Source of the DNA: Minisyncoccota bacterium
GTDB lineage: Bacteria > Patescibacteriota > Minisyncoccia > Phycocordibacterales > JAACPR01
DNA length: 64,000 nt
Reading direction: 5' to 3'
Assembly: GCA_041674225.1 (NCBI GenBank)
Contig: JBAYWG010000001.1
Coordinates: 169,401 to 233,400 of the forward strand
Shown here: positions 3,254-22,575 of the stretch, piece after piece
Layout of the letters: each line of letters starts with the position of its first letter
Numbering within the stretch: the first letter of the stretch is position 1
The notes under the pieces: generated by a model
What the model was told of the DNA's origin: nothing
Seen by the model: the letters and a program-made list of their open reading frames with translations, nothing else
The model's database searches: none
Position numbers and translations under genes: made by a program

Positions 3254-3811
3254 CTATATATTTTTCACAAACATTTTTTCTAACTCCTCCAAAACTTCAG
3301 GAAGTTTTTTCCAACCAGCAGATCCATTCAAGTGAACTCCGTTCGGGATAATAATAGGTTCTTTGTCTAATTTGTCTCCAAGTTTATAAGCATTTTCTAC
3401 AACAACCAAAGTGTCATTATCTCCATGAATTATCGACACGTCTTTTAGATTTGATTTTATAATTTCAAAATCAAAGTCTTTATAAAAATTTTCAGTAAGC
3501 GGGTTATTTGATTTTTCAAATCTACCTGCAACCAGAACTGCTCCCGGAAAACTTTTATCAGAATTTTGCAGATAATTTAAAATAGCAGCAACACCTAAAC
3601 TATGCCCAACAAAATATATTTCATCATTTTTATTTAAACCCACATGTCTAGAAATTTCATTAACCCACTCTGAACATATCGGAGCCTCTGGATTTGGCAT
3701 AGCCAAAGAACAGGCGTATACATCTTTTAATTTTAATTCCCCCATAAGCCAAGGAATCCAACTACTGTTTGGGCAACTATTAAAACCATGAATTATAAAT
3801 ACTTTTTTCAT
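3254..3811 (-). CDS. small alpha/beta serine hydrolase (YdeN/RBBP9-like)
   Basis: 185 aa with KVFIIHGF at the N-terminus, the nucleophile elbow GHSLG and IHGDNDTLV. The size and motif order match the small Ser-hydrolase family. Confidence 0.75.
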   Translation of the reverse strand: MKKVFIIHGFNSCPNSSWIPWLMGELKLKDVYACSLAMPNPEAPICSEWVNEISRHVGLNKNDEIYFVGHSLGVAAILNYLQNSDKSFPGAVLVAGRFEKSNNPLTENFYKDFDFEIIKSNLKDVSIIHGDNDTLVVVENAYKLGDKLDKEPIIIPNGVHLNGSAGWKKLPEVLEELEKMFVKNI

Positions 3812-3872
3812 AAAAATAGTTTAACACAAACAAAAAAAGCCTTGAAACAAGACCCCTTTTGTTTTTTATAAA

Positions 3873-6257: not shown

Positions 6258-6938
6258 ATGATAAACCTAGAAGAATTAAACTCCGAATTGGAGGTTTTAC
6301 CACCGACAGACATTGTCCGTCACGCATTCAAAAACTTATTTGGAGACAGGCTTGTAGTAGCGTCTTCTTTTGGTGCTGACTCTGCTGTCATGCTTCACAT
6401 GGCAACACAAATCAATCCTCGGATACGAGTAATAATGATCGATACTGGATATCTTTTTCCGGAGACTCACGAGTATGTAATTACGCTTAAAGAAAGATTA
6501 AAGCTCAATCTGCACGTGTTTTATGGAAAAGAAACTCCCGAGGAGATGGAACGCAACCATGGGCAGCTTTGGGAATATGGTGAGGAAGGATTAAGCCTCT
6601 ACCACTCAATTCGAAAAGTTGAACCACTCAGGAGAGCGATTCAACAATTGAAAGTGAAAGGTATCCTCCATGGAGTCAGAAGAGATCAGACGGAACATCG
6701 TTCAAATTTGAACGTTATTGAAAGAGGATATGATGGAACATTCAAAATTCATCCGATTCTGAAATGGACTTCGCGAGATATTCGCAGCTACAATAAGACT
6801 CACAACCTACCGGAACATCCACTGTTTCTTCAAGGTTACGAATCAATTGGTGACATTCATAGCACAAAACCAGGTGAACGCCGCAGTGATCGAGATCTCG
6901 GAGAGAGTGATGAATGTGGGATAAATTATCAGATTTGA
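6258..6938 (+). CDS. cysH: phosphoadenosine phosphosulfate (PAPS) reductase
   Basis: PP-loop-type VVASSFGADSAVMLHM, then IDTGYLFPETHEY, and a C-terminal SDECGINYQI that matches the ECG(L/I)H-type redox Cys tail of CysH. Confidence 0.8.
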   Translation: MINLEELNSELEVLPPTDIVRHAFKNLFGDRLVVASSFGADSAVMLHMATQINPRIRVIMIDTGYLFPETHEYVITLKERLKLNLHVFYGKETPEEMERNHGQLWEYGEEGLSLYHSIRKVEPLRRAIQQLKVKGILHGVRRDQTEHRSNLNVIERGYDGTFKIHPILKWTSRDIRSYNKTHNLPEHPLFLQGYESIGDIHSTKPGERRSDRDLGESDECGINYQI

Positions 6939-6961
6939 TTTGTGATTCAATTTCACAAATC

Positions 6962-6992
6962 AAAAAGCGCACGACTTCGTCGTGCGCTTTTT
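6962..6992. terminator. bidirectional terminator between convergent cysH and the yvlD-like gene
   Basis: AAAAAGCGCACGAC-TTC-GTCGTGCGCTTTTT, with A- and T-runs on both sides. Confidence 0.7.
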
Positions 6993-7005
6993 TTCTTTTT
7001 AATTT

Positions 7006-7341
7006 TTATTTATCCCCTTTCCCAAACACCATCGAAATCAGAGCAAGCAAAACTCCAAAGAATAAAGCTGACCAAAATCCTGCAACTTCAAATCCAGACA
7101 CAACGTAATCAGTTAGCATCACCATTAATGCAGTGATCACCAATGAGAAAAGTCCCAAGGTCACAATGTTTATCGGCAAAGTTAAAATTGTAATTATAGG
7201 TCTTACAAAAGTGTTAACGATTGCTAAAACTACAGCTACAATAAGTGCGGTAAAGAAACCACCAACAAAAACTCCTGGTAACAAATATGCGGCAATTATC
7301 ACAGCAAGTGCGGACAAAATAAGATTAATTATTATTTTCAT
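7006..7341 (-). CDS. YvlD/phage-holin-4-2 family small membrane protein
   Basis: 111 aa with about four hydrophobic helices. FVRPIITILTLPINIVTLGLF is typical of the DUF360/YvlD family. Confidence 0.7.
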   Translation of the reverse strand: MKIIINLILSALAVIIAAYLLPGVFVGGFFTALIVAVVLAIVNTFVRPIITILTLPINIVTLGLFSLVITALMVMLTDYVVSGFEVAGFWSALFFGVLLALISMVFGKGDK

Positions 7342-7433
7342 ATTGTTTATATTATTGATTAATTAGTTATATATCCATTATAGCAAATTTAAACCATATA
7401 ACTTTTATCTCCAAAATATAATAGAATACAACT

Positions 7434-8294
7434 ATGCAAATAAAACGCCTTCTAAAAATAAGCCGACCGAGATTTTGGATTTATGAAATAGGTCCTTATA
7501 TTGTAGGAATTGCAGCAGCAGCGGGTATAACACTGAACGCGTGGCTTTTAATCCCCGCGATCATATTTTTCTTTTTTTTCACATATCCAGCAAATATTTT
7601 TATCTACGGAATTAATGACATTTTTGATTACGAAACAGATAAATTAAATCCAAAAAAAATATCCTACGAATCTCTTGTAATGCCGGAAGAGTGGCCAAAG
7701 CTTTGGAAAAATATTATTTTGTTTTGTGCGCCTTTTTTAGTCTATGGATTTTTTGTTTTAAATATTCAAAGCTTCATCGCGCTTCTGGCTTTCTTTTTCT
7801 TTGCGGGATTTTATTCATCTACACCGATCCGTGCAAAAGCTCGTCCTTTTTTAGACAGTATTTTTAGTGCAGGACATTATGTTGCTACAGCCGTGTTTTC
7901 ATATTTGATGATTAATTATTTTTTAAATCAAGAAATTACTTGGGTTAATCTCGCGATTGGCACACTTGCAGGAATGTTTTGGGCTATAGCTATGCATGCA
8001 TATTCCGCAGTTCCGGATATTCAAGCAGACAGAGATGCAAAACTAGAAACCATTGCTACAAAGTTAGAAAAAAATAAAACAATAATTTTATGCTCAGTTC
8101 TTTATGCACTTTCTGGAATTCTTGCTTTCAAATTTTTAGGGATAGTCAGCATTATCCTTTCACTTGTTTATGTTGTATTTATGATCAAATCAATCAAAAC
8201 AACAGACGAACAACTTTTCAAAATTTATACTTATTTCCCAAAAATAAATTCTCTTTCAGGAATGATTATTTTCTTTTCAGTTTTACTTAATTAG
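7434..8294 (+). CDS. UbiA-family prenyltransferase, lycopene-elongase-like (CrtEb/LyeJ type)
   Basis: The N-terminal SRPRFWIYEIGPY and the Asp-rich NDIFDYETDKLNPKK are UbiA motifs. The protein is polytopic and its gene converges on crtI with a 4-nt overlap. Confidence 0.6.
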   Translation: MQIKRLLKISRPRFWIYEIGPYIVGIAAAAGITLNAWLLIPAIIFFFFFTYPANIFIYGINDIFDYETDKLNPKKISYESLVMPEEWPKLWKNIILFCAPFLVYGFFVLNIQSFIALLAFFFFAGFYSSTPIRAKARPFLDSIFSAGHYVATAVFSYLMINYFLNQEITWVNLAIGTLAGMFWAIAMHAYSAVPDIQADRDAKLETIATKLEKNKTIILCSVLYALSGILAFKFLGIVSIILSLVYVVFMIKSIKTTDEQLFKIYTYFPKINSLSGMIIFFSVLLN

Positions 8295-9796: not shown

Positions 9797-10701
9797 GATT
9801 TTTTAATTAATGTTAAAAACGCTAACTTAAGTTTTTCTCCAAAACTTAAATGAACTCTGCCAGCGAAAATGTCGTATTTTACAACCTCTATCTTAACAAT
9901 AATTTTTGAATATAAAACTCGTGCTACTTTTATCGCTTTCGCCTCTCTTTTAGGCAACATTTGCAATCCGATATCAGCTTTTTTATAAAGATCTTCAGTT
10001 CTAGCAATTTCAAATTTCATCAAATCAATAAAATTTTGATTTATATTTTTATTAACTAAATCATCTTTTGTCACCCCAAACTTTTGCATTTCATCTTGTG
10101 GAAGATAAACTCTATCTCTTTGTATTACATCTTCATAAATATCGCGCAAAAAATTTGTCATTTGAAATGCTTCGCCAAGCGCTTTTGCATGATCTAGAAT
10201 TTTATTTCTATAATCTAAATCTGTAACAAATCTTTTATCTTTTGAACAAACTATATAAACCATCATATAACCCACTACTACAGCCGAACCATACATATAG
10301 TCTTCCAATTCTTTATAATTTTGATACTCAGTTTTTGAAGTATCTTGAATCATAGCCGAAATAAAATCTTCACTATATTCAAAAGAAATTTTGTATGTGT
10401 CAAAAACATATTTTGTGGCACGTAAAACTTTTAATTCATCTCCTTCGGCAAAATATTCTTCACCGCGATAACACTTACCCCACACCTCCTTCCACTCATT
10501 TAATTTTTCTAAAGCTAAATCTTTTTGATCTTTATATGTAGTATCTATATATTCATCTGGTAAACGAAAAAATGCATACAAAACACAGATCGCATCACGA
10601 TACTCCGCACCCATTAACAAAGTTCCAAAATAAAAACTCTTCCCATATTCTCGATGAACTCCTCTGCAAAACTCTAAATCTAAATTATATTCTGGGTACA
10701 T
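9793..10701 (-). CDS. crtB: phytoene synthase
   Basis: YAFFRLPDEYIDT and LGEAFQMTNFLRDIYEDVIQRDRVYLPQDE are the squalene/phytoene synthase signatures. The gene overlaps crtI by 4 nt. Confidence 0.85.
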   Translation of the reverse strand: MYPEYNLDLEFCRGVHREYGKSFYFGTLLMGAEYRDAICVLYAFFRLPDEYIDTTYKDQKDLALEKLNEWKEVWGKCYRGEEYFAEGDELKVLRATKYVFDTYKISFEYSEDFISAMIQDTSKTEYQNYKELEDYMYGSAVVVGYMMVYIVCSKDKRFVTDLDYRNKILDHAKALGEAFQMTNFLRDIYEDVIQRDRVYLPQDEMQKFGVTKDDLVNKNINQNFIDLMKFEIARTEDLYKKADIGLQMLPKREAKAIKVARVLYSKIIVKIEVVKYDIFAGRVHLSFGEKLKLAFLTLIKKS

Positions 10702-11804
10702 TAAGATTTTCTCTTATCAAGCAATATCACAAAATCAAACCACACGTCTTTGATCATTGGTTTAAGATTTGATTTCAAAATTATTTTGTTGGCTTTATCT
10801 AATTGAGAATGAATTTCCTTTTCAGCATAATCAATTGCGCCTGTTTCTTGAAAAAGTTTTTGCAATACAAGTACTGAATATTCATCAATTTCTTTTCCAA
10901 AAAGTGCTAAGAATATATTTCTATCATTTTCTTTGGCGTTTTCAAAAATATATTGCGTCAAAATTGTGTGTTGACCGTCTTGCACATCCAGCAACCTTTT
11001 CTTTCCTGTTTTTTTAGGATCTCCCACAATATCCAAAAGGTCGTCTTGTATTTGAAAAGCCTGACCCAAGCACAACCCCAATTCCTTATAAAAATCTTTG
11101 TTAATATTTTTTCCAGTCAAATTTGCACCGATCAACATTGGATTAACAAAAGAATAAAAGGCTGTTTTGTATTCATTTTTAAGAAAAATATCTTTCATCT
11201 CTACTTCGTACTGAAGCATAAAAGATACATCTAGTATTTGTCCTGCGACCACTTCCTCAATCATTCTAAAAAATATTTGCTGTACTTTTTTATTATTCAA
11301 ACTAGAAATAACTTCATGCGACCAACTAAAAATTAAATCTCCCGCCAAAATAGCAATGGATTCTGCAATGTGTTTTTTATCGCCTCGAGGATACGATGAA
11401 ATAAATTTTTCTAAATAAACATGCGTCGTGTCTTTGGAATGTCTTTCTACACCTTTATCAATAATATCATCATGAATCAAAGCAAACGCATGAAATAATT
11501 CTAAAGCAATTCCAGCTCGCAAAACTTCTTCTTGGTTCACACCACCTTCTGTAGAGTACGCCAAAAAAGCCATATATGGACGAACTCTTTTTCCACCTTC
11601 ACGTACCAAAGACACAGCATAGTCCACTGCTTCCAAACTTAATTTATTATCAGAAAAGTTTTTATAGTTTAAAACTTTGTCATCCAAATACTCATTTAAA
11701 CGAATATTAAAAATATCTTGAAAAGATTTCAGATCATACGCTTTTACAACAGGAATAAAGTTGATTTTTTCTAAGTGAAGGAAAGAAAGAATGTTTTTAA
11801 TCAT
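10701..11804 (-). CDS. crtE: polyprenyl (geranylgeranyl) diphosphate synthase
   Basis: First Asp-rich motif LIHDDIIDKG and second motif FQIQDDLLDIVGDPKKTGK. The stop and start abut crtB. Confidence 0.8.
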   Translation of the reverse strand: MIKNILSFLHLEKINFIPVVKAYDLKSFQDIFNIRLNEYLDDKVLNYKNFSDNKLSLEAVDYAVSLVREGGKRVRPYMAFLAYSTEGGVNQEEVLRAGIALELFHAFALIHDDIIDKGVERHSKDTTHVYLEKFISSYPRGDKKHIAESIAILAGDLIFSWSHEVISSLNNKKVQQIFFRMIEEVVAGQILDVSFMLQYEVEMKDIFLKNEYKTAFYSFVNPMLIGANLTGKNINKDFYKELGLCLGQAFQIQDDLLDIVGDPKKTGKKRLLDVQDGQHTILTQYIFENAKENDRNIFLALFGKEIDEYSVLVLQKLFQETGAIDYAEKEIHSQLDKANKIILKSNLKPMIKDVWFDFVILLDKRKS

Positions 11805-11824
11805 GGTAGTGATTATAGCATTTT

Positions 11825-12460
11825 TTATTTATTCCCCGCTAAAGCAACTTTAATTCCAAGCGCGATAAGCACAGCGCCAGTAACTCTTTCTACGTAGTGT
11901 TGTACTTTTCCAATTTTGGTTCGTATAAGTGAGTTTGAGAAAAAGAGAGCAACTAAAACAAACCAAACAAAGGTAATCAGCATCATTTCTATTCCATAAG
12001 CGAACTGAATTATTTTAGGAGTTGAGAGATCAATTATTTGAGTGAACAATGCTAAAAAGAAAAGTGTAGCTTTTGGATTGAGTGCGTTTGTAAGAAATCC
12101 AATTTTAAATGATGACCAAAGACTTATATCTTGCTTTGCGACATTATCTTTTGTTTCAGTGTGCACCGCAGGCTTTGCTCTCAGAGATTTGTACCCGATG
12201 TAAATCAAATATCCCGCACCGATAAATTTAACAATATTAAAAATGATAACTGATTTAGAAATAACAAATCCAATTCCCAAAAGTGAATACGCCACATGCA
12301 CCAAAATTCCCACAGCAATTCCAATCGCTGTGTAAATTCCAGTCTTTCGAGAATAAATAATACTGTTACGAGCAACCATCGCAAAATCTGGACCTGGACT
12401 TACAACAGCCAAAAGATGCACTATTGCTACGGTTATAAACTGCGCAAGAAATATTGTCAT
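11825..12460 (-). CDS. LysE/RhtB-family amino-acid exporter
   Basis: 211 aa with six hydrophobic segments. The N-terminal VSPGPDFAMV motif is typical of the LysE family. Confidence 0.75.
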   Translation of the reverse strand: MTIFLAQFITVAIVHLLAVVSPGPDFAMVARNSIIYSRKTGIYTAIGIAVGILVHVAYSLLGIGFVISKSVIIFNIVKFIGAGYLIYIGYKSLRAKPAVHTETKDNVAKQDISLWSSFKIGFLTNALNPKATLFFLALFTQIIDLSTPKIIQFAYGIEMMLITFVWFVLVALFFSNSLIRTKIGKVQHYVERVTGAVLIALGIKVALAGNK

Positions 12461-12481
12461 TTTTTGATTATAACAGAAATT

Positions 12482-14371
12482 TTACTCCTCCAAACCAAAA
12501 TATCTTGGAAACAATACCGGTGTACTATCCGCCGTTATACCATCTCTTGTAATAGGAAGTTGTTGAGAAGTCGCGGGCCATGGCAGGGGAAGTTTTCCAA
12601 CAAAAGGTTTATCTCCAAAAAGCACATCCGCCACACCTTGCCCTTCACTACCAGGAAGCCACGCCGCCACAAGCGCATCCCAAGAAGAAATTTCGTTCGC
12701 AATAAGCAAAGGTCGTCCTGAAATTATTACTACCAAAACTTTTTCAGAAACTGCTTGAAGTTTTTTGATCGCCATCAAATCTTCAGAATATAAAATTGGA
12801 TATTCTCTATCGCCCACTCCTTCTGCATAAGGTTGCTCACCTACAAATGCAATTCCTAAATCAGCTTTCGTACCATCATCCACAAAATTACCTAGTGTTC
12901 GATAATCCACTCTGGTATTTTCGCTTACAGCATTTTTTATTCCATCTATTATAGAAGTCGCTCCTGGCAAATCATTTCCATTTATTCCTTGCCAATTTAC
13001 AGTCCAGGCTCCTGATTGATTTCCAATATTATTTGCAGCACTTCCAACAATACGAATATGTTTTATATTTTTATCAATTGGTAAAACTGAATTATCATTT
13101 TTTAACAGAACCAAAGATTGCGACACGGCATCTCTTGCAAGCGCACGATGTTCTACTGAACCAACAACTTCAGTTGAAATTTTATTTTCATTTTTATCAA
13201 AAAGACCTAGCTCAAATTTTGCATATAAAATTCTCCGCACAGCATCATCTATTCTGTCTTCGGAAACTTCTCCAACACGCACAGCTTTGGAAACATTTTT
13301 AACAAAAGGTTTGTAATCAAAAGGCAACATCACCATATCTACTCCAGCATTAATAGCCGTAATCACAGATCTATAATCACTCCCAGGAATTTCATAAACA
13401 CCATACCAATCAGAAACAACAAAACCTTTAAATCCAAGTTCTTTTTTTAGGACATCAGTAATCAAATATTCACTCGCAGACAATTTAGTTTCACCCCAAG
13501 TATTCAATCCAATCATTACACTTTTCACACCAGCATCTACAACGGCTCTAAATGGAACTAGATATTCTTCTCTAAGTAATTCTTCGTCAGCCAAAGTAGC
13601 ACCTTGATCTATTTTGTAATTTTCATTTGAAGAAGTGTCCCAAAGCATTCCACCAAGTCCAACAAAATGTTTTGCTGTACCTATCACAGAATTTCCCTGT
13701 AATCCTTTTATATATGCAACACCTAAATCAGATACGAGAGCAGGATCATCAGAAAAAGTTTCGTAAACTCTTCCCCAACGAATGTCGCGAGGCATATCAA
13801 GTGTTGGTGAAAAACTCCAATGCACATTTGTTGCTAAAAGTTCTTTTGCAGTAGCAGATGCAATATCTTCGACAAGCTTTGGATCCCTAGTCGCGCCAAG
13901 TCCAATAGAGTGCGGAAAAACTGTAGCTCCAGGAATATTTGAATGCCCATGAATGGCATCAACTCCATAAATTATCGGAATACCGAGACGACTATTTTTG
14001 GATTCATTTATAAAATCTGAAACCATTTTGTTCCAACCTTCAGGGGTATTATTTTCTGGATTCGCTCCAGCGCCACTTAGAAGTGCACCGAGTCCGTACA
14101 AAGAAACATCTTTCATTTCTTCAACACTTTTATTTTCAACAAGAGCCATCTGTCCAATTTTTTCTTCAAGTGTCATATAAGACAAAAGATCTTCAACACG
14201 TTCTTCTACAGAATTATTTGGATTTAAATACAAAGATTCTTTTGTTGGATTTCGTACAATCTTTGTTTCTTCATTCCGAAATAAAAATGATAAAAAATAA
14301 AAAATTCCCACCAAAATAATTAAAAATAAAAATAAGTACACAAGTTTAGCGTTCACTTTAAAATCATCCAT
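12482..14371 (-). CDS. glycoside hydrolase family 3 (beta-glucosidase / beta-hexosaminidase-like), membrane-anchored
   Basis: N-terminal TM segment, then GIPIIYGVDAIHGH, KHFVGLGG and the GFVVSDW nucleophile motif, plus a C-terminal GH3 domain. Confidence 0.85.
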   Translation of the reverse strand: MDDFKVNAKLVYLFLFLIILVGIFYFLSFLFRNEETKIVRNPTKESLYLNPNNSVEERVEDLLSYMTLEEKIGQMALVENKSVEEMKDVSLYGLGALLSGAGANPENNTPEGWNKMVSDFINESKNSRLGIPIIYGVDAIHGHSNIPGATVFPHSIGLGATRDPKLVEDIASATAKELLATNVHWSFSPTLDMPRDIRWGRVYETFSDDPALVSDLGVAYIKGLQGNSVIGTAKHFVGLGGMLWDTSSNENYKIDQGATLADEELLREEYLVPFRAVVDAGVKSVMIGLNTWGETKLSASEYLITDVLKKELGFKGFVVSDWYGVYEIPGSDYRSVITAINAGVDMVMLPFDYKPFVKNVSKAVRVGEVSEDRIDDAVRRILYAKFELGLFDKNENKISTEVVGSVEHRALARDAVSQSLVLLKNDNSVLPIDKNIKHIRIVGSAANNIGNQSGAWTVNWQGINGNDLPGATSIIDGIKNAVSENTRVDYRTLGNFVDDGTKADLGIAFVGEQPYAEGVGDREYPILYSEDLMAIKKLQAVSEKVLVVIISGRPLLIANEISSWDALVAAWLPGSEGQGVADVLFGDKPFVGKLPLPWPATSQQLPITRDGITADSTPVLFPRYFGLEE

Positions 14372-16093: not shown

Positions 16094-16121
16094 AGCCGGT
16101 TCGAGATGAGTCGAACCGGCT
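16094..16121. terminator. bidirectional terminator between ddl and the Ubl gene
   Basis: AGCCGGTTCGA-GATGAG-TCGAACCGGCT, preceded by an A-run. Confidence 0.65.
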
Positions 16122-16151: not shown

Positions 16152-16457
16152 TTAGTTACCGCGAATCTTTGAAAAGATCAACACCTGTGCTCCTTCTTCG
16201 AGCACCTCCTCAAAATTGGAGATTGTCTGTCCGTTCAAACGAACCTCTCCTTCAATTTTGTCTCGATAACCGGCAATTACCAGCGCCTGTCTGATTGTGG
16301 TTCCAGAGTCCACCTCGAAAGGTTTGATCTGTCCACCGGGGAAAGCACCGACTTTCACGTTGATTTTCTCAACTTGTGCCGGAGTCTCCTTTTTGGAAGT
16401 TGCTTTCTTTGCAGCGGGTTTCTTGGTGGTTGCTTTCTTTGTGGTTCCTTTTTTCAT
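16152..16457 (-). CDS. ubiquitin-like beta-grasp (ThiS/MoaD-like) protein with a Lys-rich N-terminal tail; C-terminus ...KIRGN
   Basis: The start is the first ATG (16457). The tail is MKKGTTKKATTKKPAAKKATSKK. The core is INVKVGAFPGG..FEVDSGTTIRQAL...VRLNGQTISNFEEVLEEGAQVLIFSKIRGN, which follows the ThiS/MoaD pattern (v.vNG..v....l.eGd.v.i....G). It lies directly downstream of the E1 gene. Confidence 0.6.
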   Translation of the reverse strand: MKKGTTKKATTKKPAAKKATSKKETPAQVEKINVKVGAFPGGQIKPFEVDSGTTIRQALVIAGYRDKIEGEVRLNGQTISNFEEVLEEGAQVLIFSKIRGN

Positions 16458-16497
16458 GGTTCTTTTCTTTTGGTTTGTTTGTTGTTTACAGATTTTT

Positions 16498-17205
16498 TTA
16501 ACTGAACGACGAACCCACAATCATCATGGGTTGAAGTGAGAATATCAATTCATGCTCGAACTCATCGGTCGGTTCTTTACCTTCCTTAAGTTTCTGCATT
16601 TTCTGATACCATCGGATGAATTGCCACACAGCAAATCCCGAGACCATTTCTGCCGTCGGACCTACTGTGATAGTTGCTCCGCAAGCGGAGACTTCAGCAA
16701 CGTCATCACCATACAGAGTTTTTTCCCATCCCGAAACTTCTACGGGACTTGATGGATTCACTGTATAGATACGACCACTATTGGAACCCATACGAGTCTC
16801 AATAATAACCTCAACGTGAGGTCTGTAACGAAGTGATCCTTTCCAGATTTCTTGTCGTGAAGACATTGTATCTGTCAGCAGGAAAACAATCTGACCGAGA
16901 CGTTGTGTTCCATCAACTCGTTCATTGTGCACCGAAACTTCGGTACCTGTCTGCACGAGAATAATATCTTTCAACGCCTCAACCTTGAGTTGTCCATTGT
17001 GATTGTTACCGAATATTTGGTTTGGGACGTTGTGGGGTTCCACTACATCCGGATCCCAAATGTGAATGTTACGGATACCGAGCTTCGCCAACGAAAGGGC
17101 GATTCTAGATCCTGTAGCACCCACACCTATGATATCGATACGTCTATCACCAAATTCTTGCGGTGAAAACACATCAAGGTGTCTTATTACGTCTAGTTCT
17201 GGCAT
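16498..17205 (-). CDS. ThiF/MoeB-type E1-like adenylyltransferase (minimal, 235 aa)
   Basis: IDIIGVGATGSRIALSLAKLGIRNIHIWDPDVVEPHNVPNQ is the nucleotide-binding motif. EVSACGATITVGPTAEMV is the Cys-bearing segment. A good SD (AAGGAG) lies 5 nt upstream of the ATG. Confidence 0.8.
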   Translation of the reverse strand: MPELDVIRHLDVFSPQEFGDRRIDIIGVGATGSRIALSLAKLGIRNIHIWDPDVVEPHNVPNQIFGNNHNGQLKVEALKDIILVQTGTEVSVHNERVDGTQRLGQIVFLLTDTMSSRQEIWKGSLRYRPHVEVIIETRMGSNSGRIYTVNPSSPVEVSGWEKTLYGDDVAEVSACGATITVGPTAEMVSGFAVWQFIRWYQKMQKLKEGKEPTDEFEHELIFSLQPMMIVGSSFS

Positions 17206-17237
17206 TCTCTCTCCTTCTAGTTTTTATTGGTTATATC

Positions 17238-18023
17238 TTAACGAAACCTTTTCCGGAAAAACCGGGGTTTATATTTTCCTCCAAAACCCTTGAAAAAGGG
17301 TGGTGAATACGGAGCGAACCGCAAAGCAGTAACTTTCCGTTTCATTTCCTCCCGAAGATCATTACGAATTTCATCCAGTTTGTCCCAGTCATCTATGTCT
17401 TCTTCTGTCCATTTCCATGGAACAGAATGAAAAGCGAAACCCTTCTCCCAGTCATAAATTCCGAAATTGATATCTCCTTGACGATTTAAGATACCGCGCA
17501 AGAAAAAATCAGTACCGAAACTTTGAAAGATTTTCATCTGATCATTATCTTGACCAGATGGGTAAGTTCCACCATTTCCATGTGAATGTCCCCAGAAGCG
17601 TATGTTGTTGAAGATTTCGTCACCACCTTCTTTCGAAAGGATTTCCATGACAAATTCTTGAAGAGCTTCTGGAAGAATTTCAGTATGGCCACCGCTCACA
17701 GTCTGAGGAAAGAGGAACACGTCATCGATGATGAAGTCTTCTCCTAGTCGCCGAGCAGTTCCAAGCCACCCCACTTCAATATTGATTGCACCTACAATAA
17801 CGTACATCTTGAAGAGGGCCAATGGACTGACAAATACAGTCGGAATATGGTGTTTCAACGTCAGAACTTCCAGAGTTGTATGGAAAACATCCGACGGAGC
17901 AAAAAATTGTCCGTCTGTCTCTGCGAATTCCCATTGGTAAGGCTGCGGAGGGGTTGGAGTATATGGGCGAGGAGCACCAACAATTTTTGCTGGCAGAGGG
18001 AGTTTAGTATTGTTTTTTTTCAT
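17238..18023 (-). CDS. JAB/MPN (JAMM) metalloprotease
   Basis: E83 lies in NIEVGWLGT, and H146-S-H148-GNGGTYP-S156-GQ-D159 gives a complete E...HxH-x7-S-xx-D JAMM motif (nt 17547-17588). There is a Pro-rich N-terminal extension and a basic C-terminal tail. Confidence 0.85.
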   Translation of the reverse strand: MKKNNTKLPLPAKIVGAPRPYTPTPPQPYQWEFAETDGQFFAPSDVFHTTLEVLTLKHHIPTVFVSPLALFKMYVIVGAINIEVGWLGTARRLGEDFIIDDVFLFPQTVSGGHTEILPEALQEFVMEILSKEGGDEIFNNIRFWGHSHGNGGTYPSGQDNDQMKIFQSFGTDFFLRGILNRQGDINFGIYDWEKGFAFHSVPWKWTEEDIDDWDKLDEIRNDLREEMKRKVTALRFAPYSPPFFKGFGGKYKPRFFRKRFR

Positions 18024-18124
18024 TTAGATTCGATTGTGAAGGTTCTTTTTATACTACTTCTGTAATTCTTTTATTATATTTTAAGGGTTTTGTCAATACC
18101 CCACCCCTTTTTATCTAATATAAA

Positions 18125-18155
18125 AAACCGCTCTCAGAAACTCTGAGAGCGGTTT
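18125..18155 (-). terminator. rho-independent terminator after the E2-like gene
   Basis: Minus strand reads AAACCGCTCTCAG-AGTTT-CTGAGAGCGGTTT followed by TTTTATATT. It separates the E2-like gene from the JAB-E1-Ubl unit. Confidence 0.7.
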
Positions 18156-18167
18156 GACTTAAAGCCA

Positions 18168-19799
18168 TTATTTGATAGCAAGACTGCCATCAAATTCCTT
18201 CAAGAATTCCAGGACCAGCTCGATTACTGTTTCCAGATCGAGTTCTCCAAGAAGTTCCGGCAATGTCGCATGAAGAGGACCTATGGGTAGCCCTCCATCC
18301 CACATTGGGTGCAAATGAGGAATATTAATATCCGGCTCCATTTCGTTACCGATCGGAGAAATACTAACTAATCCTTTCAACACGTTGCACAAAATACGAA
18401 ACGATCCGATGTTGTGAATTTTTTCGGTTGAAATGTCCCTGCTTTTGATAGATCTAGTATCAACAACGAAGACATCATCTCCCTTGAAAAAGACACCCGA
18501 GACTTCCGGCCAGGCACTCACCCTTTGGATACGTTCATTGAACAAATCAGTGGTCACAGCAGCAGGAACCTTTACAAGGTTTTGGATAAAAACGTTTTGC
18601 GCTATCATCATCTGATTGCGACGAATATTATTCATCAACTTTTTCAGTTCATTTTCCTTATCCTGCTTCTGTGCTGCTCGTTCATCTACGAACAGATTAC
18701 GGAAAGCCGAGATCACGACAGGATCTTTAAGCGGTGGCTTTTTTGGATAATCGATACTTTTATCAACAACAGGAAACTTCCTCAAAACAGTGAGGTAATC
18801 TCCGTAATGAATTTCGTTTATCGTTCCAATTGCTTTAATGGCAACAAGGATGGACGCTTCGAACTCATAATCCTTGAGTAAAGGAAGAATAACCTTTCCT
18901 TCCCCCATACAAAATTGATTCGTGTACCGATCCACATGAGGATGACCAAAAGTGTGTCTTTCATACTCAACTCGACGAGTGAGGTTTTTAAACACAGCAG
19001 GTGTTTCTTCACCACCTCCAAAGAGAAGCTTGATCTCAAATTGTCCAAATTCATGAAGAATTTTAGTTCCGGGATCAACAGCATACATGGTCTGTGTGGT
19101 GAAAATGATTCTTCTACCATCCACTCTAATGTTCTGAATCTCAGGAATATTCCAAAGAGTTTGAAGCACCTTATCAGCTTCTTCGTAAGCTTGCTGGTTG
19201 TCATCATTCTTTGATACCAAAGAAGAAGTCAAAACAATATCGTTTTGAATCAGCCGACGATTTTCTGTAAGCTGTTTTTGAAGATCAACATCTTTCTTGG
19301 ACTTAGGAATTTTGAATTTCCCATTCTTGATTTGAACAAGACTAGGCAAATCTCCCCTGATGAGATTCATTGCTTCTGTAAGAATGTGTTTATACACATC
19401 CACGTTCGGCTTATTACAGCAATTGTTAGAAGCATCGTAAAGCAAATACAGATTATTTTTTCCAACGAGTTCTGCAACAGCATAATTGCTTTCAGGATCC
19501 ACAATAACAATCCCTCTACCAGAAGGTTGATATAGAGTACGATTACATGTACGAACTCTTTGTTTCCACAACTCGTCTGGAAGCGTCAATTCGACCTTAT
19601 CACCATCAGCAGTACCGAAGACGTTAAGAAAAAATGTAGTTGAAAAACGACGTACATCTCTTTGTCTTCCTTGACAGTTGTACAGTTGAATTTCATTGAA
19701 CCCCAATATTTCCAATGCATCACCCAAAACATCTCGGGTAGCTGATTCAAAAGAATCCGCAACACGAAAATCCCAATTTGTTTTTTCTATTCTTATCAT
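18168..19799 (-). CDS. large tandem E2/UBC-like protein (HPH...Cys297 module plus a Cys-less UEV-like module, with coiled-coil linkers)
   Basis: Residues ~205-335: WNIPEIQNIRVDGRRIIFTT...FGQFEIKLLF...FGHPHVDRYTNQFCMGEG...ILVAIKAIG. This parallels the UBC order GxFxLxLxF...HPNVxxxGxIC...VLLSIQALL. Residues ~425-540 repeat the module (WPEVSGVFFKGDDVFVVDT...IGSFRIL...IPHLHPMWDGG...VIELVLEFL) but have no Cys. Confidence 0.55.
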   Translation of the reverse strand: MIRIEKTNWDFRVADSFESATRDVLGDALEILGFNEIQLYNCQGRQRDVRRFSTTFFLNVFGTADGDKVELTLPDELWKQRVRTCNRTLYQPSGRGIVIVDPESNYAVAELVGKNNLYLLYDASNNCCNKPNVDVYKHILTEAMNLIRGDLPSLVQIKNGKFKIPKSKKDVDLQKQLTENRRLIQNDIVLTSSLVSKNDDNQQAYEEADKVLQTLWNIPEIQNIRVDGRRIIFTTQTMYAVDPGTKILHEFGQFEIKLLFGGGEETPAVFKNLTRRVEYERHTFGHPHVDRYTNQFCMGEGKVILPLLKDYEFEASILVAIKAIGTINEIHYGDYLTVLRKFPVVDKSIDYPKKPPLKDPVVISAFRNLFVDERAAQKQDKENELKKLMNNIRRNQMMIAQNVFIQNLVKVPAAVTTDLFNERIQRVSAWPEVSGVFFKGDDVFVVDTRSIKSRDISTEKIHNIGSFRILCNVLKGLVSISPIGNEMEPDINIPHLHPMWDGGLPIGPLHATLPELLGELDLETVIELVLEFLKEFDGSLAIK

Positions 19800-19839
19800 T
19801 TTGTACTAGGTATAATTTTAAAACAACTTCTGGCAGAAG

Positions 19840-19866
19840 AATATAACACAAATCAAGACATGTCAA
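19840..19866 (-). promoter_or_regulatory. promoter candidate for the E2-like gene
   Basis: Minus strand reads TTGACA (19866-19861), a 15-nt spacer, then TGT-TATATT (extended -10, hexamer 19845-19840). Confidence 0.45.
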
Positions 19867-19876: not shown

Positions 19877-19906
19877 AAAAAGCCGCCACCCAACCAGGGT
19901 GGCGGC
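19877..19906 (-). terminator. rho-independent terminator after the flavoprotein gene
   Basis: Minus strand reads GCCGCCACCC-TGGTT-GGGTGGCGGC followed by TTTTTATTTT. Confidence 0.75.
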
Positions 19907-19913: not shown

Positions 19914-21467
19914 TCAGCGAGCGAGCTGATATTCCGCGCTTCTCATAACAACACCAAACAAAACATCTCCAATCCGATGAAGCATGCCAGGAATGACGAT
20001 GGCATTCGGGTTGTGAGGAGTTTCCAACACAGACCCAAAGCCGTAATAACCAGACAAAATCCGCTTCTTAGGATCAGGACTGTGTTTGACGATAAACTCT
20101 CCATCGTAATCAAACAAAGGACACTTATCTACAGGATCGTAGGTGCAGCCCATGCTTTTCATAACTTCCGGCGAATTACCATACCCAATGAGTGTCATGA
20201 TCTTCCCAAAGGGAATTTTTTCAACCTCAGAGTGCTCTTTACGAAAGACGTAGACTTCCTTTCCAGCAACTTCCCAACGATTGACTCCATAAAGAATTTT
20301 TCCATTGTGAAGCGCACGGTAGTAATCACTACGACTTCTCGCAAGATCTCCCTGAAAATCAACCAGATTAGGAAGGGATACATCCCGAAATAATCTGCGT
20401 GCAACTCCATCAACGACAACAGTCGTGTTTGGATTATAAACACATTCTTCAGGGTAGTGAGTAAGAACACGATAGTCCACAGCCGCACCTCGATCAATCA
20501 GATTATGAATCTGAAAAAGCATCTCTGCCGTTGAATTACCGAGTCCGACGAGGATAATTCTCTTACCCTCAACTTCATCGCGATCAATAACCTTCTGCCA
20601 ACGTGAACCGGCTTGGGCAGTGGTCGCTTCAGTAGTCATGCGACTTGGATCAGAAAGCGGTTTTGGTTTACCGAGACCAATCGTATTAATAACGATTGGA
20701 AAAGTTTCTTTTTTTCCATTAGCGAAATGAAGCACGTGCTTCAACTTACCAGGAACAATCTTGACCACCGTCTCCTTTTTAGAACGGTAAGCTAGATTAT
20801 CTAGGAACCGGCGAACTTCTTCACCATCTCCAGGTGCAGGCCGCAAGATTCTATCAAAGAATTGTAGCTGACGTGGATTATTCCTAGACAGTCCAAAGAC
20901 ATTGTTCTGACTCCAGATACCCAGCGGCTTAGACTTCTCATATATGGTAATGTTATTAAAACCAAGTTGTCTGAGCGCGTAAGTGATAAGAATCCCCGCA
21001 GCCCCATAACCGACAACGGCAATTGGAACTCGAGACAAGGAATTTGGAATAGTAGATTGGCTGACAAAAAAAGTTGCCGCACCCTCTCCTAAAAACTGTT
21101 CCGGACTCCGAAGACCGCTATTGGCAAGAGCCAAATCGATACGACGATTCTGCAAATGTTCACCTCGATATTCAGGAAGATTATCTTCACTGTCGATAAA
21201 AGGAAGTGCTTGGGCATAACCATTAAGAACTCCTCCAACATCACCGACTCGAAGAACCAATTCAGAAAAAAGGTTACCCCAACGTCCTGTGTTTGACATT
21301 TCTTGGACAGCATCAAGACTGAATCCTTTCTCGTCAATCCATCTTCTCAGAACACCCAGCGAAACCTTTTTCATAAAAGAATCTCCTAGGGTCTTGAGCT
21401 TTTCACAAGCAGTCACTAAGTCACGAGGAGTTCTTTTTGAACTCATTCTTTTTGAAGCGGTATTCAT
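19914..21467 (-). CDS. flavoprotein with two dinucleotide-binding folds (class-B monooxygenase / pyridine-nucleotide oxidoreductase-like) and a ~150-aa N-terminal extension
   Basis: IAVVGYGAAGILITYAL is FAD-type GxGxxG and IILVGLGNSTAEML is the second GxGxxA fold. TLIGYGNS is ATG-like. No CxxC redox pair is present. Confidence 0.6.
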   Translation of the reverse strand: MNTASKRMSSKRTPRDLVTACEKLKTLGDSFMKKVSLGVLRRWIDEKGFSLDAVQEMSNTGRWGNLFSELVLRVGDVGGVLNGYAQALPFIDSEDNLPEYRGEHLQNRRIDLALANSGLRSPEQFLGEGAATFFVSQSTIPNSLSRVPIAVVGYGAAGILITYALRQLGFNNITIYEKSKPLGIWSQNNVFGLSRNNPRQLQFFDRILRPAPGDGEEVRRFLDNLAYRSKKETVVKIVPGKLKHVLHFANGKKETFPIVINTIGLGKPKPLSDPSRMTTEATTAQAGSRWQKVIDRDEVEGKRIILVGLGNSTAEMLFQIHNLIDRGAAVDYRVLTHYPEECVYNPNTTVVVDGVARRLFRDVSLPNLVDFQGDLARSRSDYYRALHNGKILYGVNRWEVAGKEVYVFRKEHSEVEKIPFGKIMTLIGYGNSPEVMKSMGCTYDPVDKCPLFDYDGEFIVKHSPDPKKRILSGYYGFGSVLETPHNPNAIVIPGMLHRIGDVLFGVVMRSAEYQLAR

Positions 21468-21535: not shown

Positions 21536-22462
21536 TCAATTTTTTTGGAATTTAATAGTTTGTTCTGTCCAATCAAAATATGGCCAGCTCACAATATTAT
21601 TTCTAGCAAGAATTCTAGGACCCCAATATGATAAGAAGAAAGTTCCAGAGACAATAAGAAGTACAGCAGTAAGGATTACCACACGATTAGTTTTAGCATT
21701 AAGCCATTTTTCAAATCTACCTCCAGTTCCATAGAAAAGAATCAAAAACAATACTGCCATTACAATAATATTTCCAATCCCCTGAAGAACAAAAGCGAGG
21801 CTACCATAAAATGGATTATGAGTTGAGGCCGCGTATTCAAACATTTTTCTAAAAAGTGGAAAGGGACGACCAATTAAAAATGCACCTATAGTTGCACCCA
21901 TGATAAAAGGAGCGGCCCACACATGTTTTGCAAAAAACTTCGAGAATGGATTAGGAATTACTTTAATAGTTCCCAATCCCCAAATAATATAAGTGATTCC
22001 AATCAAGCAGAATACAACAACCGACTGCAAGAGTCGCACTGGCATTCCATTTGAAAGTTGCTCGGTTGAAAGCTGAGGAAGGTTCGAGCCAATCAAAGCA
22101 CCTATCCCGCCATAAAGCGCAGCTACAACAATTAGACCAAGTGACAAAAATCCTAAAGGCTTCAAGACACTTCCAGTTGATCTCTTTCCACTTGAAAGTG
22201 GAGCGATCGCACTAAAAGCACAAATGTTGCAAGCAGTGAAAGTTCCTGCCAAACCTGAAACAAAGGCAAATAATGCACCCATAATTATTCCAGTAATTGG
22301 AGTAGTCTTAGCATCATATCCAAGAAGATTATTAGCTATAGGATCTCCAAGATCACTATCCACAAATGAAGCTGACCAAAATACACTTATAAGAAAACCC
22401 AACAAAACGCTACCTACCACTATTAAAGTTTTTTGTTTTCGGCTTATATTAATTTGTTCCAT
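21536..22462 (-). CDS. polytopic membrane protein, CcdA/DsbD-like, with an intramembrane CxxC
   Basis: 308 aa with about 8 hydrophobic helices. FVSGLAGTFTACNICAFSAIAPL resembles the CcdA first-helix motif (GLLSFLSPCVLPL). Confidence 0.4.
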   Translation of the reverse strand: MEQINISRKQKTLIVVGSVLLGFLISVFWSASFVDSDLGDPIANNLLGYDAKTTPITGIIMGALFAFVSGLAGTFTACNICAFSAIAPLSSGKRSTGSVLKPLGFLSLGLIVVAALYGGIGALIGSNLPQLSTEQLSNGMPVRLLQSVVVFCLIGITYIIWGLGTIKVIPNPFSKFFAKHVWAAPFIMGATIGAFLIGRPFPLFRKMFEYAASTHNPFYGSLAFVLQGIGNIIVMAVLFLILFYGTGGRFEKWLNAKTNRVVILTAVLLIVSGTFFLSYWGPRILARNNIVSWPYFDWTEQTIKFQKN

Positions 22463-22504
22463 ATTTCTAAACTACAATTTTAATATGAACATGTCAATTT
22501 TAGG

Positions 22505-22575
22505 TTGCCCGACAGGGATTCGAACCCCGATTAATGGCTCCAGAAACCACTGTCCTACCATTAGACGATCAGGCA
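22505..22575 (-). tRNA. tRNA-Gln (CTG)
   Basis: Hand fold: TGCCTGA TC GTCT AATGGTA GGAC A GTGGT TTCTGGA GCCAT TAAT CGGGG TTCGAAT CCCTG TCGGGCA A. It has a U1:A72 pair. CCA is not encoded. Confidence 0.85.

Follow-up and report, generated by a model that had tools for sequence, protein, structure and literature searches.

Whether four adjacent genes in a Patescibacteria (CPR) genome encode a ubiquitin-like (Ubl) conjugation system, or another pathway assembled from similar proteins, is the question raised by the 64,000-nucleotide stretch of DNA analysed here (the window). The original prediction had read these genes as encoding a Ubl, a minimal E1, a JAB peptidase and a large E2-like protein. 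A Ubl conjugation cassette with the conserved order E2-like, JAB, E1, Ubl is the best explanation, and one that we hold to be reasonably probable. Most likely the set belongs to none of the classes published so far (6a-6e, Bil, Bub, Cap2/3), and this version of the cassette does not appear to have been described in the earlier literature.

Gene content and conservation of the cassette

An ORF check of the window confirmed the four adjacent minus-strand genes, and all residue numbers and strings quoted for them were exact (E83, H146, H148, S156 and D159 in the JAB protein; H286 and C297 in the E2-like protein; IRGN at the end of the Ubl). Homologues of all four genes occur in identical order in 11 other loci, and the four ORFs are therefore considered to be real genes and not chance reading frames. 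The predicted co-occurrence in other genomes was thus found, the order E2-like, JAB, E1, Ubl being kept in 12/12 loci with enough flanking sequence; this synteny persists at E1 matches down to E 1e-64 (12/12 loci). No computable outcome named beforehand as refuting the prediction was observed. The E2-like family comprises 696 representatives at E <= 1e-3, and the cassette is mainly found in CPR.

Activating enzyme and JAB peptidase

The E1 (16498..17205, minus strand) is a stand-alone ThiF/MoeB-type adenylating enzyme of 235 aa, which scores above the Pfam cut-off for ThiF (PF00899; 63.1 bits against 28.1, E 2.9e-17), as had been expected. Its PDB matches are PaaA, MoeB, ThiF, MccB and UBA5. 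The motifs GVGATGS (residues 27-33) and Asp112 in LLTDTM are present, and the sole cysteine, Cys175 (codon 16681-16683), lies in SACGA; 8 loci show no variation in these motifs or in the A-C dipeptide, and the identity of the protein among CPR loci is 64-69%. The enzyme is indeed minimal and unfused: it starts directly at the Rossmann fold, and the rhodanese domain, the CxxC zinc site, any fusion partner and the N-terminal peptide-clamp domain of MccB are all absent from it.

The JAB/MPN+ metallopeptidase (17238..18023, minus strand, 261 aa) carries the complete JAMM motif as predicted (E83, H146-x-H148, S156, D159). The motifs E(V/I)xWLG, FWGHSH and PSxQD are invariant in the 7 aligned loci, and the JAMM motif is also present in the JAB of 4 further loci. 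The family assignment holds through this motif and through the best PDB sequence matches, Rpn11 (1.7e-5) and CSN5, but not through the Pfam Prok-JAB profile, for which the score (16.3 bits) is below the cut-off of 25.

The E2-like protein

The 543-aa E2-like protein (18168..19799, minus strand) is composed of an N-terminal alpha/beta domain (residues 1-165, 19305-19799), a long helix, a UBC-like module 1 with the motif GHPHVDRYTNQFC297MGEG (residues about 205-350, 18750-19187), a second long helix of roughly 70 residues and a UBC-like module 2 (residues about 412-543, 18171-18566), all on the minus strand. Module 1 models as a UBC fold, as anticipated, with a pLDDT of 92.5 and a pTM of 0.86. 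The predicted internal duplication was recovered by profile-profile comparison (99.1%, E 1.4e-18) and was not detected by BLASTP; the second copy lacks the cysteine. On sequence comparison, the two modules are the product of an internal duplication within this bacterial family.

Aligned by hhalign with eukaryotic E2s, whose reference sequences were entered by hand and not taken from a database, module 1 gave a probability of 60% (E 8.7e-5) and placed (A/H)-P-H over H-P-N and Cys297 over the catalytic cysteine, whereas no sequence method linked the protein to the Pfam UQ_con or Prok-E2 families, and none of 21 members matched a Prok-E2 family. The modest hhalign probability, obtained with these hand-entered E2 sequences, and the missing link to UQ_con or Prok-E2 were both counted against conjugation.

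Cys297 (codon 18909..18911, minus strand), the predicted catalytic, thioester-carrying residue of module 1, is conserved in 146/151 family representatives and in 21/21 full-length relatives. Across the 151 representatives, each of Cys297, Pro287, His288 and Gly299 is kept in no fewer than 146 (about 97% for the first three). The prediction that His286 would be conserved as well stood only for the close clade (21/21 full-length relatives); overall it is found in 39/151, and mostly replaced by Ala in the wider family. The universally conserved histidine is instead His288, which occupies the Asn position of HPN, 9 residues upstream of Cys297, so that the HPN of eukaryotic E2s is here HPH or APH. 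Ala at the canonical HPN histidine in most of the family was likewise counted against conjugation.

The Ubl and its C-terminus

The Ubl (16152..16457, minus strand; NCBI annotation P0159) is a ThiS/MoaD-like beta-grasp protein of 101 aa from the first ATG, or of 122 aa if the alternative TTG ORF (16152-16520) is used. The lysine-rich tail that had been noted is present in the window (10 Lys among the first 25 residues), but is not general, only some homologues having such a tail. A profile of 8 homologues gave weak matches to MoaD (1vjk, 0.013), PF1061, SAMP2 and ThiS, and aligned the conserved Gly of the Ubl with the terminal Gly of these proteins. Some Ubls, such as those of L007 and L011, contain several beta-grasp domains.

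The sequence ends in FSKIRGN, and a C-terminal Gly-Asn was found in every Ubl examined (more than 20); the residue before the Gly varies (RGN, KGN, AGN, QGN), the Asn is constant, and in a di-Ubl it is also retained at the end of the internal repeat. A model in which the Asn is a disposable cap does not obviously explain this constancy, and the invariant Asn, which a simple removable-cap model does not predict, was counted against conjugation. The same constancy argues for a different chemistry, in which the Asn would be kept and the classical activation of Gly would not occur. In a route of the MccB type, the E1 would adenylate the Asn alpha-carboxylate to give a succinimide, as MccB does on MccA, and the cyclic-imide end would be captured by Cys297 or an amine, or a protein-nucleotide phosphoramidate would be formed; in a route of the Pup type, the Asn would be deamidated and the Ubl joined via the side chain (compare Pup GGQ to GGE). 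MccB homologues all act on Asn-ending peptides via a C-terminal succinimide (PMC4010828), and the solved proteins nearest to the E1 include MccB and PaaA. The E1 is, however, no closer to PaaA/MccB than to MoeB/ThiF and lacks the MccB clamp domain, and the invariable JAB and E2-like Cys carrier are directly explained by a trim-then-transfer route, where the constancy of the P1' Asn may reflect nothing more than the cleavage specificity of the JAB. We consider retention of the Asn very unlikely.

Upstream genes and the sulfur-carrier alternative

The original prediction held that no effector is encoded, which has to be amended: just upstream of the cassette, and slightly beyond the coordinates of the original prediction, a conserved neighbour (19914..21467, minus strand) encodes a divergent flavoprotein of 517 aa with weak Pfam matches (NAD_binding_8, Pyr_redox_2, Pyr_redox_3). 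Its two dinucleotide-binding sites (VGYGAAG...YEKSKPLGIW and LVGLGNSTAE) form a pattern that resembles class B flavin monooxygenases; in the PDB, the similarity of its profile is confined to the FAD-binding beta-alpha-beta motif of FMO, L-amino-acid oxidase and amine oxidases. Homologues with 50-66% identity adjoin the E2-like gene, on either strand, in L001, L002, L003, L005, L006 and L010, and the flavoprotein is thus the upstream neighbour in 7 loci, window included. In two others (L004 and L013) this place is taken by a Mpa/ARC-like AAA+ ATPase (TIGR03689, 8.9e-89, full length), a gene absent from the window; the loci showed no 20S proteasome genes. A metabolic role suits the flavoprotein no less well than Ubl conjugation, in which, to our knowledge, such a neighbour has no precedent; this too was counted against conjugation.

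Sets of Ubl, E1 and JAMM peptidase in which the carrier bears a C-terminal extension are known in sulfur pathways (CysO/Mec+, QbsE/QbsD). Read in this manner, the E1 would adenylate the Ubl to yield a C-terminal thiocarboxylate from which a small molecule or tRNA receives sulfur, the JAB would act in carrier maturation like Mec+ on CysO and QbsD on QbsE, Cys297 would carry a persulfide in place of a Ubl thioester, and the flavoprotein would act on the sulfur-containing product. The Ubl resembles MoaD and ThiS, the E1 is as small as ThiF or MoeB and has the ThiS adenylyltransferase ThiF as its best NCBIfam match (3.3e-16, below cut-off), the JAMM gene lies beside a carrier with residues after the Gly, as in CysO/Mec+ and QbsE/QbsD/QbsC, and a flavin oxidoreductase neighbour is conserved in 7 loci. 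This alternative is weakened by the absence of any conserved adjoining rhodanese, cysteine desulfurase, ThiG, MoaE, CysM or TtuA/NcsA-type gene in 12 loci, so that neither the rhodanese nor the sulfur-acceptor enzyme of sulfur-carrier systems is present. The lack of a conserved sulfur-pathway partner in any locus was counted for conjugation. The partner that never varies has a UBC fold and, at the E2 position, a conserved Cys. Rpn11 and CSN5, both deubiquitinases, are the closest matches of the JAB, the carrier has G-N at its end in place of the G-G typical of sulfur carriers, and the wider family lacks the flavoprotein, which an AAA+ unfoldase replaces in two loci. A sulfur-carrier function is, in our judgement, quite unlikely.

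Candidate transcription signals

The promoter and terminators proposed for the E2-like gene were found as consensus matches. The region's best sigma-70-like match (TTGACA, 17 nt spacer, TATTCT; 10/12 consensus matches) lies upstream of this gene (19838..19866); the region has 16 promoter-like sites, no more than chance would give (18.1 expected from shuffling). Terminator-like sites are roughly two-fold above the shuffled expectation (13 against 7.1). They include a hairpin between the E2-like and JAB genes (18125..18155; 14 bp stem and T run, a consensus-level prediction), a strong one after the flavoprotein gene (19882..19906; 10 bp stem, 9 G-C pairs, T run) and one that would close the JAB-E1-Ubl unit (16094..16121), all on the minus strand, like the promoter match. 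The gap between the E2-like and JAB genes is 128-145 nt in CPR-clade loci; in more distant loci the genes abut or overlap.

Genomic context and comparison with known systems

BilABCD (type 6c, 'CEHH') shares all four functions with the cassette, each on its own protein (Ubl, E2, JAB deubiquitinase, E1), and its E2 was proposed to choose targets without an E3 (10.1101/2024.11.21.623953). The cassette might accordingly tag phage proteins with the Ubl and block assembly or infectivity. Its GC content, 0.38-0.45 over five genes (16.0 to 21.4 kb) against 0.31-0.40 in the flanks, would then be the trace of a defence module spreading horizontally; there is a tRNA-Gln at 22503-22575, a serine recombinase is found 3 kb from the cassette in L010, and the accessory genes vary. 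Against this, no PADLOC model matches the E2-like protein, JAB or Ubl, and the E1 hits the E1-E2 models in their generic adenylation part alone; no relatives were found on 72,556 plasmids, in 50,697 phage records or in PHROGs; no att-like repeats flank the cassette; and it is surrounded by housekeeping genes (pyrG, ddl, ribosomal proteins, ruvA/ruvX, recR), with pyrG adjoining it in two different genomes. Bil-type defence is considered unlikely; it is a reading of the biological role, and a conjugation mechanism could hold alongside it. Bil also differs in its multidomain E1 (IAD-AAD-CYS), where the E1 here is a single adenylation domain whose one Cys lies in the crossover region; in the cassette, the Ubl is one ThiS/MoaD-like beta-grasp with G-N at its end, and the E2-like protein is a tandem-module giant.

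Operon type 6d comprises separate Ubl, JAB, E1-like and E2-like genes and an alpha-helical protein (Iyer, Burroughs and Aravind 2006, PMC1779556). Separate genes for a small beta-grasp Ubl whose C-terminal Gly is conserved, a JAB, a rhodanese-free E1-like and a Cys-containing E2-like protein are shared with it. The 6d E2, however, has no His upstream of the Cys but an absolutely conserved one downstream, whereas His288 is upstream here; the JAB-N domain of 6d, with strictly conserved Arg and Trp, is not evident, and the alpha-helical protein is found in 6d only. The E2-like proteins here, of which none among 21 members matches a Prok-E2 family, measure 370-1100 aa and carry an additional N-domain and, within the CPR clade, the second Cys-less copy.

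Bub (type 6e, DUF6527) is likewise a diverged bacterial Ubl, E1 and E2 set, with multi-beta-grasp Ubls such as those of L007 and L011, but its parts are fused (Ubl-E2 or E2-E1, and JAB-E1), and it works with a DUF6527 serine protease and through oxyester (Ser) intermediates; here the parts are unfused, the Cys is conserved and DUF6527 is absent. The loci with an AAA+ gene resemble Pup-Mpa and ubiquitin-proteasome tagging in the Mpa/ARC-type neighbour, in a tag ending in Gly and an amide residue (GGQ in Pup, GN here) and in the Rpn11-like JAB; they differ in that the loci showed no 20S proteasome genes and that activation is by an E1 and E2-like protein, not PafA/Dop. As a large multidomain E2 possibly without a separate E3, the E2-like protein recalls UBE2O, BIRC6 and Ubc13-Mms2/Uev1a, the modules being here, unlike those of the latter, in one chain.

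Proposed mechanism and biological role

We infer the biochemical steps of conjugation, its targets and the role of the cassette from sequence and predicted structure. The Ubl would be made as ...R-G-N, and the Rpn11-like JAB would cut off the terminal Asn to expose the Gly; it probably reverses conjugates too. The ThiF-type E1, presumably a homodimer, would then adenylate the Ubl C-terminus with ATP and may hold the Ubl on Cys175, before it is passed on to Cys297 of module 1, as the fold, position and conservation of this residue suggest. Module 2 would act like a UEV or RWD partner, binding the Ubl or positioning the acceptor, by likeness to Mms2 for Ubc13, and the N-terminal domain and long helices may serve substrate choice or oligomerisation. 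The 543-aa protein, a carrier enzyme of unusual size with one module predicted to be active and the other inactive, would thus be a combined E2/E3 (no target or E3 was found for the cassette), and the Ubl would finally be placed on lysines of target proteins. The product of the upstream gene, flavoprotein or AAA+ unfoldase, may be a partner, a target or a downstream reader; the AAA+ neighbour and the Rpn11-like JAB point to a tag-then-unfold logic.

Protein quality control, regulation and anti-phage defence are all candidate roles. The source organism is a tiny-genome CPR bacterium that carries a conserved four-gene set which looks like a stripped-down ubiquitin tagging system.

Gene content and signals of the cassette

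ORF calling recovered all four minus-strand genes that had been proposed for this part of the window, namely the Ubl (16152-16520 when started at TTG; the NCBI annotation has a 101-aa product that starts at the first ATG, 16152-16457), the ThiF/MoeB-type E1 (16498-17205, 235 aa), the JAMM metallopeptidase, or JAB (17238-18023, 261 aa), and a large E2-like protein (18168-19799, 543 aa) that is 100% identical to the NCBI entry "hypothetical protein WC087_01005". The residue numbers assigned beforehand proved exact, both in JAB (E83, H146, H148, S156, D159) and in the large protein (H286, C297). Predicted hairpin terminators matching the consensus were located on the minus strand at 19906-19882, 18155-18125 and 16121-16094. 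Among the promoter-like sites, also consensus matches, the best one in the region is at 19866-19838 on that strand. Relative to shuffled sequences, terminator-like sites of the region were enriched about two-fold and promoter-like sites were not enriched.

Fold and internal duplication of the E2-like protein

The full-length 543-aa protein was modelled with AF2 (pLDDT 85.5). In the model, an alpha/beta N-domain is followed by a long helix, a first module (module 1, residues ~205-350), a 70-residue helix and a second module (module 2, residues ~412-543), both modules being composed of a beta-meander plus helices. The protein had been described as internally duplicated. No duplication was seen when module 1 was compared with module 2 by BLASTP, and profile-profile comparison with hhalign identified the two as homologous (99.1%, E-value 1.4e-18 on 117 columns); the HMM of module 1 also detects module 2 in most relatives. 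The N-domain, which is unrelated to either module, was used as the control for this test, and its identification as a third UBC copy was ruled out (hhalign probability of ~1%).

Foldseek gave no significant match for the full-length model, and a clear answer was obtained from isolated module 1 only, for which residues 200-350 were modelled by themselves using 79 homologues (pLDDT 92.5, pTM 0.86). The fold matches include RWD domains (Knl1, FANCL, RNF25), the bacterial CdnG-E2, BubB and the UEV protein Mms2. The expected UBC fold is reproduced in this predicted structure, with an N-terminal helix, a four-stranded antiparallel beta-meander, an active-site loop and two to three helices. In an hhalign comparison of the family with six manually entered eukaryotic E2 sequences, the (A/H)PH motif fell on HPN and C297 on the catalytic Cys (60%, E-value 8.7e-5). 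We conclude that module 1 is a UBC-fold domain, divergent in sequence, whose conserved Cys occupies the E2 position. In module 2 another residue stands at the Cys position and the HPH motif is degraded, and we regard it as an inactive copy of UEV/RWD type.

Family extent and conserved residues

A word-indexed protein search yielded 1-2 relatives only, even with a 21-sequence profile, so that an exhaustive HMMER search was required. Performed on 1.84 billion cluster representatives (E <= 1e-3), it returned 696 relatives of the 543-aa protein, about 21 of which are full-length (529-595 aa); the others range from 370 to 1100 aa and have the N-terminal domain and the central module in common. Named carriers are Paceibacterota, Kaiserbacteria, Parcubacteria and Patescibacteria, plus one Verrucomicrobiae bin, and all the proteins are annotated as 'hypothetical'. 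Two scans of genome contigs gave no confirmed relative, and a metagenome scan gave one locus. Nothing was found for the 543-aa protein in Pfam, NCBIfam, PADLOC, PHROGs or PDB sequences; neither this protein nor its 21 relatives matched Pfam UQ_con (PF00179) or Prok-E2_A to Prok-E2_E, even at E <= 5. The Pfam scan of these 21 relatives and an hmmsearch of the family profile against PDB sequences retrieved noise or coiled-coil matches only.

H286 and C297, both predicted to be conserved, are invariant in the 21 full-length proteins, within (Y/F)GHPHVDRxxxxWCxGEG. Over 151 representatives this holds for C297 (146/151), with P287 (150/151), H288 (147/151) and G299 (146/151) similarly kept, but not for H286, present in 39 and replaced by Ala in 107, so that for this residue the claim stands in the full-length proteins only. 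The family motif is (A/H)-P-H-V-x(3-5)-G-x-x-C, in which the Asn of HPN is replaced by His and the Cys follows the HPN-type motif at the distance expected for the UBC/E2 superfamily (~8-11 residues).

A further motif, LYIHHD-x-x-H-x-G, is strongly conserved in the N-terminal domain of the wider family (for example at residues ~190-200 of P0037, one such relative) and is missing from the window protein (NNLYLLYDASNN). This motif may represent a metal-binding or catalytic site that has disappeared from the CPR clade of close full-length relatives.

E1 and JAB peptidase

The E1 scored 63.1 bits with Pfam ThiF (PF00899; cut-off of 28.1), the match beginning at residue 21. It has the features of the ThiF/MoeB/E1 family, with a Rossmann-type adenylation domain, a GxGxxG ATP loop and the conserved Asp/Arg set, and its GVGATGS, HN..NQ and LLTDTMxSR motifs are invariant across 8 loci. 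It is minimal and unfused, as had been noted: 235 aa with one adenylation domain, and neither a fused domain, a rhodanese domain nor a CxxC zinc site. In a PDB sequence search its nearest solved relatives were PaaA, MoeB, ThiF, MccB and UBA5, with similar and weak E-values; the match to MccB reached 3.4e-3 only and covered residues 19-93. The PADLOC E1-E2 models cover the N-terminal adenylation part alone (residues 16-107). The sole Cys, C175, is located in an invariant A-C dipeptide just ahead of the VGPTAE helix. It may be the counterpart of Cys184 of ThiF; in that enzyme, as in UBA5, a Cys located in the crossover loop or past it is able to hold the Ubl.

The JAB carries the complete E...HxH-x7-S-xx-D zinc site that had been read in it (E83, H146, H148, S156, D159), which places it in the JAMM/MPN+ group, and these residues are invariant in the aligned loci. 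It remains under the Pfam Prok-JAB cut-off (16.3 vs 25 bits), and its best PDB sequence matches are the eukaryotic deubiquitinases Rpn11 (1.7e-5) and CSN5.

Gene neighbourhood across loci

Eleven further loci with cassette homologues were gathered and compared with the window proteins. The predicted co-occurrence of the four genes was found in every locus with enough flank (12/12, window included), in the order E2-like, JAB, E1, Ubl. E-values against the window proteins ranged from 1e-64 to 1e-116 for E1 and from 3e-23 to 1e-73 for JAB, with retention of the JAMM and E2 motifs and of the sole Cys of the E1. Loci of the CPR clade have ~130-145 nt between the E2-like and JAB genes, which fits the terminator found there in the window, and at greater distance from this clade the two genes abut or overlap. 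Besides the duplication inside the gene, whole genes of the family have been duplicated, as indicated by side-by-side E2-like paralogues: L004 has two in tandem (9911-11671 and 11693-13453), and L007 has an extra E2-like paralogue upstream (6749-7975).

The position upstream of the E2-like gene is variable and is shared by two main alternatives, a flavoprotein or an AAA+ ATPase. The flavoprotein (510-517 aa, 50-66% identity) lies beside the E2-like gene, on either strand, in seven loci: the window (19914-21467, minus strand, adjoining the E2-like gene), L001 (6678-8216), L005 (6273-7805), L006 (5690-7228), L010 (5326-6858) and, as partial copies, L002 and L003. It is a divergent protein with FAD and NAD(P) dinucleotide motifs resembling class B flavin monooxygenases, and its conservation is above that of the E2-like protein (30-37%). 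In two loci, L004 (8361-9851, plus strand) and L013 (4988-6766, plus strand), it is replaced directly upstream of the E2-like gene by an Mpa/ARC-like AAA+ ATPase, which matches TIGR03689 'proteasome ATPase' over its full length (8.9e-89) as well as Mpa structures; no copy of this ATPase was found within the window. In three loci, L001 (5933-6529), L005 (9829-10395) and L006 (7352-7924), a DUF6008 membrane protein of ~190 aa is encoded together with the flavoprotein and the cassette. The 308-aa membrane protein of the window (21536-22462, CNIC motif) was rejected as its counterpart, no similarity being detected.

Base composition and possible signs of mobility

The GC content of the five-gene block that runs from flavoprotein to Ubl (16.0-21.4 kb) is 0.38-0.45, and that of its flanks 0.31-0.40. 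A tRNA-Gln gene (22503-22575, minus strand) lies ~1 kb past this block. No att-like direct repeats were found around the GC-rich block, so that its horizontal acquisition is no more than possible. The window neighbours are housekeeping genes (ddl, pyrG), and the L004 cassette likewise adjoins pyrG. No relatives were found in plasmid or phage collections (tblastn with a wider-family member) or in PHROGs. In L010 (Patescibacteria), the region ~3 kb upstream of the cassette (2167-3837) encodes an HTH_36 protein and a serine recombinase with Resolvase/Recombinase domains, a possible sign of mobility. The role of the cassette may be in housekeeping or in defence.

Comparison with described systems

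CBASS Cap2/Cap3 systems comprise an E1-E2 fusion beside a CD-NTase and an effector; none of the loci contains a CD-NTase, such a fusion or such an effector, and this assignment was rejected. Sulfur-carrier systems (ThiS/ThiF, MoaD/MoeB, CysO/Mec+, QbsCDE) would be expected to have a sulfur-acceptor enzyme in the neighbourhood, along with a rhodanese or cysteine desulfurase as the donor of sulfur. Neither a sulfur donor module nor a sulfur-acceptor enzyme is conserved across the 12 loci; one Aminotran_5 gene is located 8 kb off, in L006 only.

The classes published for bacteria comprise types 6a-6e (Iyer et al. 2006, PMC1779556), Bil (6c/CEHH) and Bub (6e). In Bil, the E2 is of the CEHH type and the E1 is multidomain, combining an inactive and an active adenylation domain with a mobile domain that bears the Cys (10.1101/2024.11.21.623953). 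The single adenylation domain of the 235-aa E1 excludes a BilABCD system, and no PADLOC model matches the E2-like protein. Bub is defined by a DUF6527 serine protease, by Ubl-E2 or E2-E1 and JAB-E1 fusions, and by a catalytic Cys replaced by Ser; it was rejected since the cassette has no fusions, no DUF6527 in the window or the 12 loci, and a conserved Cys.

Type 6d is the nearest published class in gene content. Its E2 has no upstream His and an absolutely conserved His past the Cys, its JAB-N has a conserved Arg and Trp, and an extra alpha-helical protein is present (PMC1779556). The E2-like family instead has a conserved His upstream of the Cys, on which ground type 6d was rejected; moreover, the N-terminal region of the JAB showed no invariant Arg or Trp when loci were compared, and no conserved fifth gene encodes an alpha-helical protein of that kind. 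By their published definitions, the known classes thus differ from the cassette in E1 architecture, fusions, position of the conserved E2 His and accessory proteins. Owing to these differences in defining features, the cassette was placed in no named family and filed under prokaryotic Ubl-E1-E2-JAB conjugation cassettes. No description of it was found in an incomplete survey of the literature on Patescibacteria.

As an observation, the original prediction of a Ubl conjugation module was confirmed, and as an interpretation it passed each of its computable checks. The analysis demonstrates the gene set, motifs, UBC-like fold, duplication, conservation and synteny. The Ubl would be trimmed by JAB, adenylated by the E1 and transferred as a thioester to the E2-like protein, steps that are inferred, as are the targets and the biological role.

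The Gly-Asn end of the Ubl

The Ubl of the window ends in IRGN, its final G-N being encoded at 16152-16157 (minus strand), and has 10 Lys within its first 25 residues. The Lys-rich tail previously described is present in this protein, and such tails occur in only some homologues. Within the coding sequence of the tail, at 16390-16449, a stretch of 30 nt is imperfectly duplicated in tandem (70% identity), which suggests that local duplication has lengthened the tail.

Weak matches to MoaD (0.013), PF1061 (0.06), SAMP2 (0.08) and ThiS (0.6) were obtained with a profile built from eight Ubl homologues; the alignments with these proteins are collinear to the end and set the conserved Gly on the terminal Gly of MoaD, PF1061, SAMP2 and ThiS. 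The terminus is x-G-N, not the G-G of ThiS/MoaD-type Ubls. It was found in all Ubls examined, in partly overlapping sets of 8 Ubls of loci, 18 database sequences and 4 Ubls of added loci, as RGN, KGN, AGN or QGN, the residue before Gly being variable and the Asn constant; in the two-domain Ubl of L007 (11135-11677), LLSRVQGN closes both repeats.

A removable cap would not require one invariant Asn. This residue can be read either as a strict P1' determinant for JAB or as a participant in the chemistry, and the second reading is based on the invariance of the Gly-Asn end. Pup has a Gly-Gly-Gln terminus. MccB, a relative of E1, acts on substrate peptides that always end in Asn, by a route through a C-terminal succinimide (PMC4010828). 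MccB-type synthetases combine a substrate ending in Asn with an N-terminal peptide-clamp domain on the E1; the Ubls examined here have the invariant final Asn, and the window E1 has no N-terminal domain ahead of the Rossmann fold. By analogy with these two systems, the Asn might, improbably, be the reactive end of a tag and not a cap: adenylation by the E1 would lead to an MccB-like succinimide, or deamidation would occur as in Pup, and an Asn/Asp-derived linkage would be formed to Cys297 and then to targets, coupled to the Mpa-like unfoldase in some CPR bacteria.

Biological significance

The bacterial relatives of ubiquitination, Cap2/3, Bil and Bub, have lately been shown to be working conjugation systems. 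The cassette would add to them a branch of ~700 sequence clusters unrecognised by curated models and concentrated in Patescibacteria, whose genomes are very small and for which few systems of regulation or proteolysis are known. Its parts are reduced and separable, with a ThiF-sized one-Cys E1, an Rpn11-like peptidase and an E2-like fusion of an active and an inactive module as in Ubc13-Mms2, which makes it a good system for the origin of E1-to-E2 transfer and for E3-independent targeting. The Gly-Asn end, together with the alternative flavoprotein and Mpa-like AAA+ neighbours, could indicate a tag-and-unfold pathway in bacteria devoid of a proteasome, or could instead indicate an unusual C-terminal chemistry. 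If the Asn were indeed reactive, this would be a third tagging chemistry beside Gly-thioester ubiquitination and Glu-phosphate pupylation.
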